From a virus (Duplodnaviria > Caudoviricetes), in the IMG/VR virus record IMGVR_UViG_3300037067_026422: a stretch of DNA of 64,000 bases. One strand, written 5' to 3'. This document shows, piece by piece, positions 35,480 to 35,539 of the stretch. The notes under the pieces are model-generated. The model saw only the letters and a program-made list of their open reading frames with translations. It ran no database searches and was not told the DNA's origin. How positions within the stretch are numbered: the stretch's first letter is position 1; every line of letters begins with the position of its first letter. A program made the translations under genes and the position numbers.

Positions 35480-35511
35480 ACCTTATCCTAAATCTCATAG
35501 AGCATCACATA

Positions 35512-35539
35512 GGGACATCCTCACTCGCGTAGAGAAAGC
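35512..35539 (-). CRISPR. Solitary degenerate type I-E-like repeat
   Basis: GCTTTCTCTACGCGAGTGAGGATGTCCC matches the repeat at 48009-48036 at 21/28 positions. Confidence 0.55.

Follow-up and report, generated by a model that had tools for sequence, protein, structure and literature searches.

A solitary, degenerate repeat unit of the type I-E family, here called S, forms the last unit of a non-coding RNA cassette of tRNA-like units, upstream of a Ro60 homologue, in a 64,000-nt stretch of viral DNA that was analysed as a whole (the window). We read S as a lineage-specific solitary repeat unit, and a decoy of the Racr (RNA anti-CRISPR) type is tentatively put forward as its single most likely function. 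What was observed of S is its family membership by sequence, its solitary state, a tail that is not a spacer, its cassette context, and the recurrence of similar units in relatives; transcription, Cas binding, and inhibition are inferred. The crRNA-like geometry of the locus is most simply a by-product of where the repeat landed in an older element, since the tail and the terminator are ancestral, the distance from a conserved motif to the terminator varies among relatives, these relatives lack S, and no protospacer was found. Judged by the cluster record for the 394-aa protein encoded nearby, the window is part of a 238,919-bp phage-like contig, and this size identifies the source as a jumbo phage; INPHARED contained no close relative of it. 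The same phage also occurs in sequencing run SRR18595300. All genes of the window are located on the minus strand, as are the features of S, and the GC content is 37.7%. Coordinates are collected in Table 1.

Table 1. Features of the S locus and of the related intein mini-array, in window coordinates.
Feature	Coordinates	Strand	Remarks
S	35512..35539	minus	Degenerate repeat unit of the type I-E family, solitary; hairpin with GCGA cap, handle AUGUCCC
32-nt tail between S and terminator	35480..35511	minus	Phage sequence, partial alignment to relatives
Intrinsic cassette terminator	35440..35479	minus	18-pair stem and T-run; common to the clade
35-codon sORF or small-RNA element with S inside	35505..35612	minus	Only the first ~12 codons resemble the relatives' element
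Sigma-70-like promoter	35615..35642	minus	TTGAAA, 16 nt, TAAGAT
I-C-like hairpin, then GTGGATTGAAAC	35636..35662	minus	Overlaps the -35 box; Rfam CRISPR-DR matches sub-threshold only
tRNA-Asn-like unit in long closing stem	35708..35782	minus	Candidate Y-RNA-like RNA
5' hairpin of cassette transcript	35807..35840	minus	I-C-like, GTCGC...ATTGGAAC
Conserved cassette promoter-like motif	35842..35890	minus	AAAAAAGTATTTG ... TATTATTATAG
Ro60 (TROVE + vWA) homologue	33122..34717	minus	531 aa; two genes downstream of the cassette
R1 + 32-nt spacer + R2	48009..48096	minus	I-E-like mini-array, in frame in the PolA intein; nothing else in the window is closer to S

S has the sequence GCTTTCTCTACGCGAGTGAGGATGTCCC and is identical at 22 of 28 positions to R1 (48096..48069) and at 21 of 28 to R2 (48036..48009), the two repeats of a mini-array within the PolA intein; the 11-nt core CTACGCGAGTG is common to all three without a mismatch. 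The earlier note on this DNA had described, at 35480-35539, a repeat with 21/28 identity to an intein-embedded repeat and a retained core, followed by 32 nt and a terminator stem, and both parts of that description were borne out. Chance likeness was rejected on the basis of the core count, a 28-mer scan, and a covariance score. Allowing up to one mismatch, the core occurs three times in the window, where 0.17 occurrences are expected. When the 28-mers of both strands of the window were compared with R1, R2, and a real I-E repeat, none apart from S, R1, and R2 themselves reached 18/28 identity. A covariance model was trained on 12 short family members, with R1 and R2 included and S left out, and run unfiltered over the whole window; S ranked third after R1 and R2 with 21.1 bits (E ~2e-4, the E-values of this model being rough), 10 bits over the first match below it and over a background of at most 11 bits. 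Only one copy is present at the locus and the nearest others are 12.5 kb away, so that S is solitary, a CRISPR array having at least two regularly spaced repeats. An exact scan of IMG/VR with the repeat pattern gave no match. No Rfam family scored S, which is uninformative because none scored R1 or R2 either.

The family was assigned by a public genome scan, in which contig DBXY01000063.1 of a Verrucomicrobia MAG (locus L003, genome G001) was found to hold 120 copies of the 29-nt repeat CTTTTCCCCACGCGAGTGGGGATGTTCCG with a period of 61 nt. A Cas6e gene (PF08798, 126.6 bits) is located about 5 kb from this array, and since the two share a contig, the repeat family of S, R1, and R2 is taken to be genuine type I-E. 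Identity to the Cas6e-linked repeat was 23/28 for S and 25/28 for R1, so S resembles the repeats of a Cas6e-adjacent array in alignment as well as in its covariance score. Two Peribacteria matches (L002 and L004) were rejected as chance; each contains the 22-nt pattern only once, and in L002, the one that was read, it falls within an apparent EF-P coding sequence. A type I-E system is plausibly presumed in the host of this phage.

The Thermus/Verrucomicrobia-type I-E repeat, which the repeat of Thermus thermophilus presumably resembles, has a CCCCAC-GCGN-GUGGGG hairpin and a handle AUG..CC. behind it. In the family, a stable G-C-rich stem of 6-7 bp with a tetraloop occupies repeat positions 6-21. 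S shares with the L003 repeat the GCGA loop and the AUGU at the start of the handle, but is changed at stem positions 7, 9, and 19, so that the 6-bp G-C stem is now partly wobble-paired or mismatched. In the canonical register, three Watson-Crick pairs, two G-U pairs, and one C-A mismatch remain below the retained loop, and an alternative register gives 7 bp with a bulged U. Folded alone, S reached -5.8 kcal/mol (bulged-U form; z = -0.49), compared with -10.2 for R1 and -13.6 for the real I-E repeat, and its hairpin was absent from the minimum-free-energy fold of the 211-nt context. The handle reads AUGUCCC in S and AUGUUCC in the real repeat, AUGU.CC being retained.

Loci syntenic to that of S at about 60% amino acid identity were obtained via homologues of the 394-aa protein (L006, L007, L008/L009, L011, L020, L028, L031, and L032). 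Gene order is kept throughout, as genes for proteins of 394 aa, ~90 aa, and ~120 aa, a non-coding gap, and genes for proteins of ~104 aa, 84-89 aa, and ~525 aa. The gap of the relatives contains two to three tRNA-like units with conserved flanks, followed in most loci by a small element and then the terminator. The flanks read ATTACnGTrrAkGCTTACA ... ATTAGCAnnnrCGACTTAt and enclose one unit in the window. Each unit is closed by a long stem (window 35678-35814, minus strand; L006 9060-9720; L007 9080-9810; L008 9060-9640), and Rfam models gave no score for the units. The cassette promoter-like motif stands at the head of the cassette in L006, L007, L008, L031, and L032; L028 has a variant in its place. 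The tRNA-like unit of the window lies between I-C-like hairpins that have GTGGATTGAAAC behind them; the one that overlaps the -35 box is retained in L032 (1250-1274), L031 has it with another stem (2038-2067), and the position of the transcript's 5' hairpin is occupied by I-E-like hairpins in L028 and L032. Transcription from the sigma-70-like promoter is predicted to start about at the ATG of the sORF that holds S. As separate observations, the stems of the I-C-like hairpins differ (CGCT/AGCG and CATAC/GTATG) while the trailing GTGGATTGAAA(C/T) is kept, as in a type I-C repeat with an 11-nt handle, and the TTGAAA within one such hairpin is at the same time a -35-like box of the unit that follows.

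The 531-aa protein encoded downstream of the cassette is a Ro60 homologue by its predicted fold. An AF2 model (pLDDT 68) matched Ro60 1yvp (E 3e-10, TM 0.57), D. radiodurans Rsr 2nvo, and the Ro60 of Thermus phage phiLo, 9l5y, while Pfam gave only a weak vWA match and missed the TROVE part. Y RNAs with tRNA-like domains adjoin Ro60 genes in many bacteria and phages (PMC4201824), and TROVE proteins are found in some jumbo phages (PMC7824862); on account of this known linkage and of the Ro60 neighbour, the stem-closed tRNA-like units are regarded as candidate Y-RNA-like RNAs.

Several further observations were made in the vicinity. The 104-aa gene directly past the cassette terminator (35084-35398, minus strand) is 29-44% identical to its relatives, compared with 60-80% for its neighbours; it evolves much faster than any other gene in the block, survives only as a fragment in L007, and has no family match. 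Long imperfect direct repeats rich in GCAGGAGCAGTAGC-type units, which in one frame read as Gly/Ala/Val-rich peptides, occupy the interval that separates the Ro60 gene from the gene after it (32554-33011) and, about 3 kb away, at 29318-29659. A PADLOC search of 60 window ORFs gave strong matches to MzaA (1.3e-42), an SNF2/ZorD-like helicase, and E1-E2 ubiquitin-like enzymes. Of the best 25 of 70 PADLOC families none was a Cas family, and no acr or aca gene was recognised near S.

Units resembling S recur in the relatives. At other positions of the same cassette, the covariance model detected I-E-like units in L031 (2085-2113, 19 bits) and L007 (9402-9429, 18.8 bits), and a borderline one at the transcript 5' end in L028 (3830). 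Directly past the Ro60 stop codon, I-E-like hairpins were found in L007 (12160-12251, two of them 33 nt apart as repeat-spacer-repeat), L008 (12155-12183), and L011 (7405-7433), with none at this site in L020, L028, or L032; the window has a decayed I-E-like hairpin after its Ro60 gene (33121-33093, minus strand). The stems are retained in the units of the relatives and the loops vary (TTCG, CGAA, GCGA). A distant relative, L001, had no cassette unit and no covariance-model match, either at the locus or in the whole 100-kb record. From the units of the relatives, the decayed window copy, and the I-C-like hairpins, repeat-like hairpins are judged to be a recurrent, fast-turnover feature of the cassette across the clade, and repeated gains in one locus that is predicted to be highly transcribed suggest selection. 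A separate viral contig, L036 (IMGVR_UViG_2791355248_000001, 2900-3100, minus strand), contains I-E-like repeats with loops that vary among the copies and with short (~21 nt), mutually similar 'spacers' between them; its appearance is that of a series of repeat mimics more than that of an ordinary CRISPR array.

As a decoy, S would be transcribed from the cassette promoters in an RNA ending at the ancestral terminator; its hairpin and handle would be bound by Cas6e and Cascade subunits of the host, and these would thereby be titrated off real crRNAs, with no guide role for S. Support for this comes from the two promoter-like sites upstream of S and the strong terminator downstream (Table 1). 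A decoy is a reasonable candidate because S is a real solitary I-E-family repeat inside a predicted transcribed non-coding cassette, and it is preferred because such units recur in one transcribed locus and the handle is retained. Against it stand the weak stem of S, whose hairpin lies outside the context fold, and the position of S, which no relative shares (the closest has ~63% amino acid identity). S may also be a mere recombination by-product of the intein copy, given a match of 27/33 that takes in flanking sequence.

Because S and the intein copies are read in the same frame, homology at the coding level was examined by comparison of the intein with its homologues. The PolA intein is present in about 50 relatives; 11 were aligned, and all of these have the 17 residues GCKKRxNRYGYHTPNxx after the second LAGLIDADG motif. 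In this phage alone, relative to the 11, a 35-residue segment encoded by R1, spacer, and R2 is found, the two repeats being 60 nt apart. Because the aligned inteins lack that segment, the mini-array is interpreted as a lineage-specific replacement in which repeat DNA entered the intein and the likeness at the peptide level is secondary. A homing-endonuclease remnant or peptide motif shared with the intein was rejected as the source of the similarity, FPYASGGVS being absent from the 11 homologous inteins. The replacement also changes the second LAGLIDADG motif from DTDG to DTDD, which probably disabled the homing endonuclease.

The best alignment of S extends over R1 and its 5' flank (TTGTGATGGC versus TTGTAATAGT; 27/33 in total), and by protein alignment only, this flank starts at what are Cys-Lys codons in the intein of the relatives. 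S and R1 may thus be copies of each other or may have been joined through microhomology, and with the flank included in the match the two should not be treated as separate occurrences. The earlier note had inferred a type I-E host from two independent loci in this DNA; two loci there are, but their independence is doubtful.

A decaying relic is the principal rival. According to this explanation, illegitimate or microhomology-mediated recombination with an array, either the intein mini-array or a different one, inserted a repeat and its flank into the small element, and S itself is without function. Taken singly this is somewhat unlikely; it is nearly as likely as a decoy because the stem is degraded and the element around S has decayed, having lost both the closing stem and the GNP motif of the relatives. 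The inclusion of the R1 flank in the best alignment, the decayed state of the post-Ro60 hairpin in this phage, and the patchy distribution of I-E-like units among the relatives all point the same way. A relic accounts less readily for the repeated appearance of I-E-like units in this cassette across independent lineages, for a score 10 bits over background, and for the retained AUGU.CC of the handle.

The small element into which S is set was found at the equivalent site in seven relatives as sORFs of 28-36 codons that begin M-[RK]-Q-Y (ATG-AGA/AAA-CAG-TAT), and the frame is open in 8/8 genomes. In L008, L031, and L028 the 5' and 3' ends of the element pair into a long closing stem. The element can therefore be taken as coding or as RNA, since it has a terminal stem in these three and yet an open frame in every genome. 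None of the syntenic relatives compared has S at this position, and S would have overwritten the middle and 3' part of the element at the end of the cassette; conservation in related phages, whose lack the earlier note had named as part of what would refute its reading, was not found among them.

S might do no more than code for a 35-aa protein (MRLYHLILDKEQ...CDGFLYASEDVPM), with no RNA-level role for its resemblance to a repeat, which we consider distinctly unlikely. Besides the open frame, this explanation draws on NP codons that stay in the sORF frame in 7/7 relatives despite indels, on a GGTAA word at an in-frame offset in the four relatives measured, and on the reading frame that S shares with the intein copies (F-x-Y-A-S-x-x-V). 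The C-terminal half, however, is unlike that of the relatives, and the nine differences between S and R1 are split 3, 3, 3 over the codon positions and so give no sign of protein-level constraint. The predicted transcription start at the ATG, the long terminal stem of L008, L031, and L028, which is typical of a small RNA, and the nature of the intein peptide as an insertion rather than a family motif also weigh against it.

The tail and terminator bear on the possibility that S serves as a crRNA-like guide of the Cracr/CreR type, in which cleavage in S would give a handle, a 32-nt guide, and a 3' hairpin, and the product, once loaded into the Cascade complex of the host, would repress a host promoter or be directed against a competing phage. 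A geometry of 28 + 32 nt that matches the intein array suggested such a guide, and there is precedent in a viral I-E Cracr with one processed repeat and a long unprocessed 3' tail (bioRxiv 10.1101/2024.10.29.618823). The length of 32 nt, however, assumes a 28-nt repeat and counts the A-tract of the terminator as stem; it becomes 31 to 37 nt if the repeat is taken to be 29 nt long or if the stem is counted from CCC. The terminator stem CC(C/T)GGTAGAGC is retained in L006, L011, L028, and L032, and the tail segment GATGCTCTATGAG aligns with the 3' end of the small element as GTGTGCTCTATCTGAG in L006, GTGTTCTATCTAA in L008 and L031, and AGCTCTATAC in L028. The distance from a conserved CTCTAT motif to the terminator, counted by eye, varies from 17 to 37 nt among the relatives, so that 32 is not a conserved value. 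No protospacer for the 32 nt was found in the window at up to three mismatches, INPHARED returned only noise (E up to 10), and the first 21 nt had no protospacer in IMG/VR. Given the partial syntenic alignment in L006, L008, L028, and L031 and the lack of a protospacer, the tail is taken to be native phage sequence and not an acquired spacer. With the tail and terminator ancestral in relatives that have no repeat, no target in other phages in INPHARED or IMG/VR, and a Cas6e-type hairpin that is weakened and outside the minimum-free-energy fold, a guide is very improbable. The earlier note had offered a Racr-type decoy or a promoter-silencing guide, and for a solitary I-E repeat in a non-coding cassette only the former is kept as a reasonable candidate.

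Least probable is a chimeric Y-like RNA with S as its effector module, in a clade running a cassette of I-C and I-E repeat mimics coupled to Ro60: the small element would normally close into a Ro60-binding stem, its inner module would here be swapped for a Cas6e-type hairpin, and the RNA would link Cas6e or Cascade of the host to the RNA-decay platform formed by the phage Ro60, or else Cas6e and Cas5d of the host would be co-opted by the phage to excise its Y-like RNAs from the cassette.

Counter-defence by solitary CRISPR-repeat mimics, which act as RNA, has been recognised only recently, and tests of such mimics against type I-E are few. S by itself is weak evidence; what is new is its setting, an uncultured jumbo-phage clade that repeatedly places I-E-like, and apparently I-C-like, hairpins in a Ro60-linked tRNA-like cassette and even in a polymerase intein. 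If the units are active, as the decoy proposed for S would be, the cassette would be a small locus of anti-CRISPR RNAs directed at several systems and would hint at the CRISPR types of the host; if inactive, it records the spread and decay of repeat units within phage genomes.

Three known systems were compared with S. Virus-borne mini-CRISPR arrays and the orphan arrays of huge phages have been described by Medvedeva et al. 2019 (PMC6858448) and Al-Shayeb et al. 2020 (PMC7162821); S has neither a second repeat nor an acquired spacer, but belongs to the same repeat family as the repeat-spacer-repeat arrangements in the PolA intein and in relative L007. Among the viral crRNA-like regulatory RNAs (Cracr) of Liu et al. 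(bioRxiv 10.1101/2024.10.29.618823), CracrIE2 consists of a degenerate repeat, a spacer, and an unprocessed 3' tail. S likewise is a degenerate repeat followed by a spacer-sized segment and a 3' tail, but it has a single repeat and its 'spacer' is phage sequence that partly aligns to relatives. The third comparison is with the viral solitary repeat units that act as RNA anti-CRISPRs (Racr), two of which, RacrIE1 and RacrIE2, are directed against type I-E (Camara-Wilpert et al. 2023, PMC10651486). S differs from these in its degraded stem and in being located inside a conserved sORF/small-RNA element that ends a tRNA-like, Ro60-linked cassette rather than in an acr locus. It resembles them in being a single repeat-like unit of the type I-E family in a phage, intergenic and preceded, at no more than 250 bp, by promoter-like sites. 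Since the PADLOC matches listed for the window include no strong Cas match, S also fits the description of a solitary viral unit that is not associated with cas genes.
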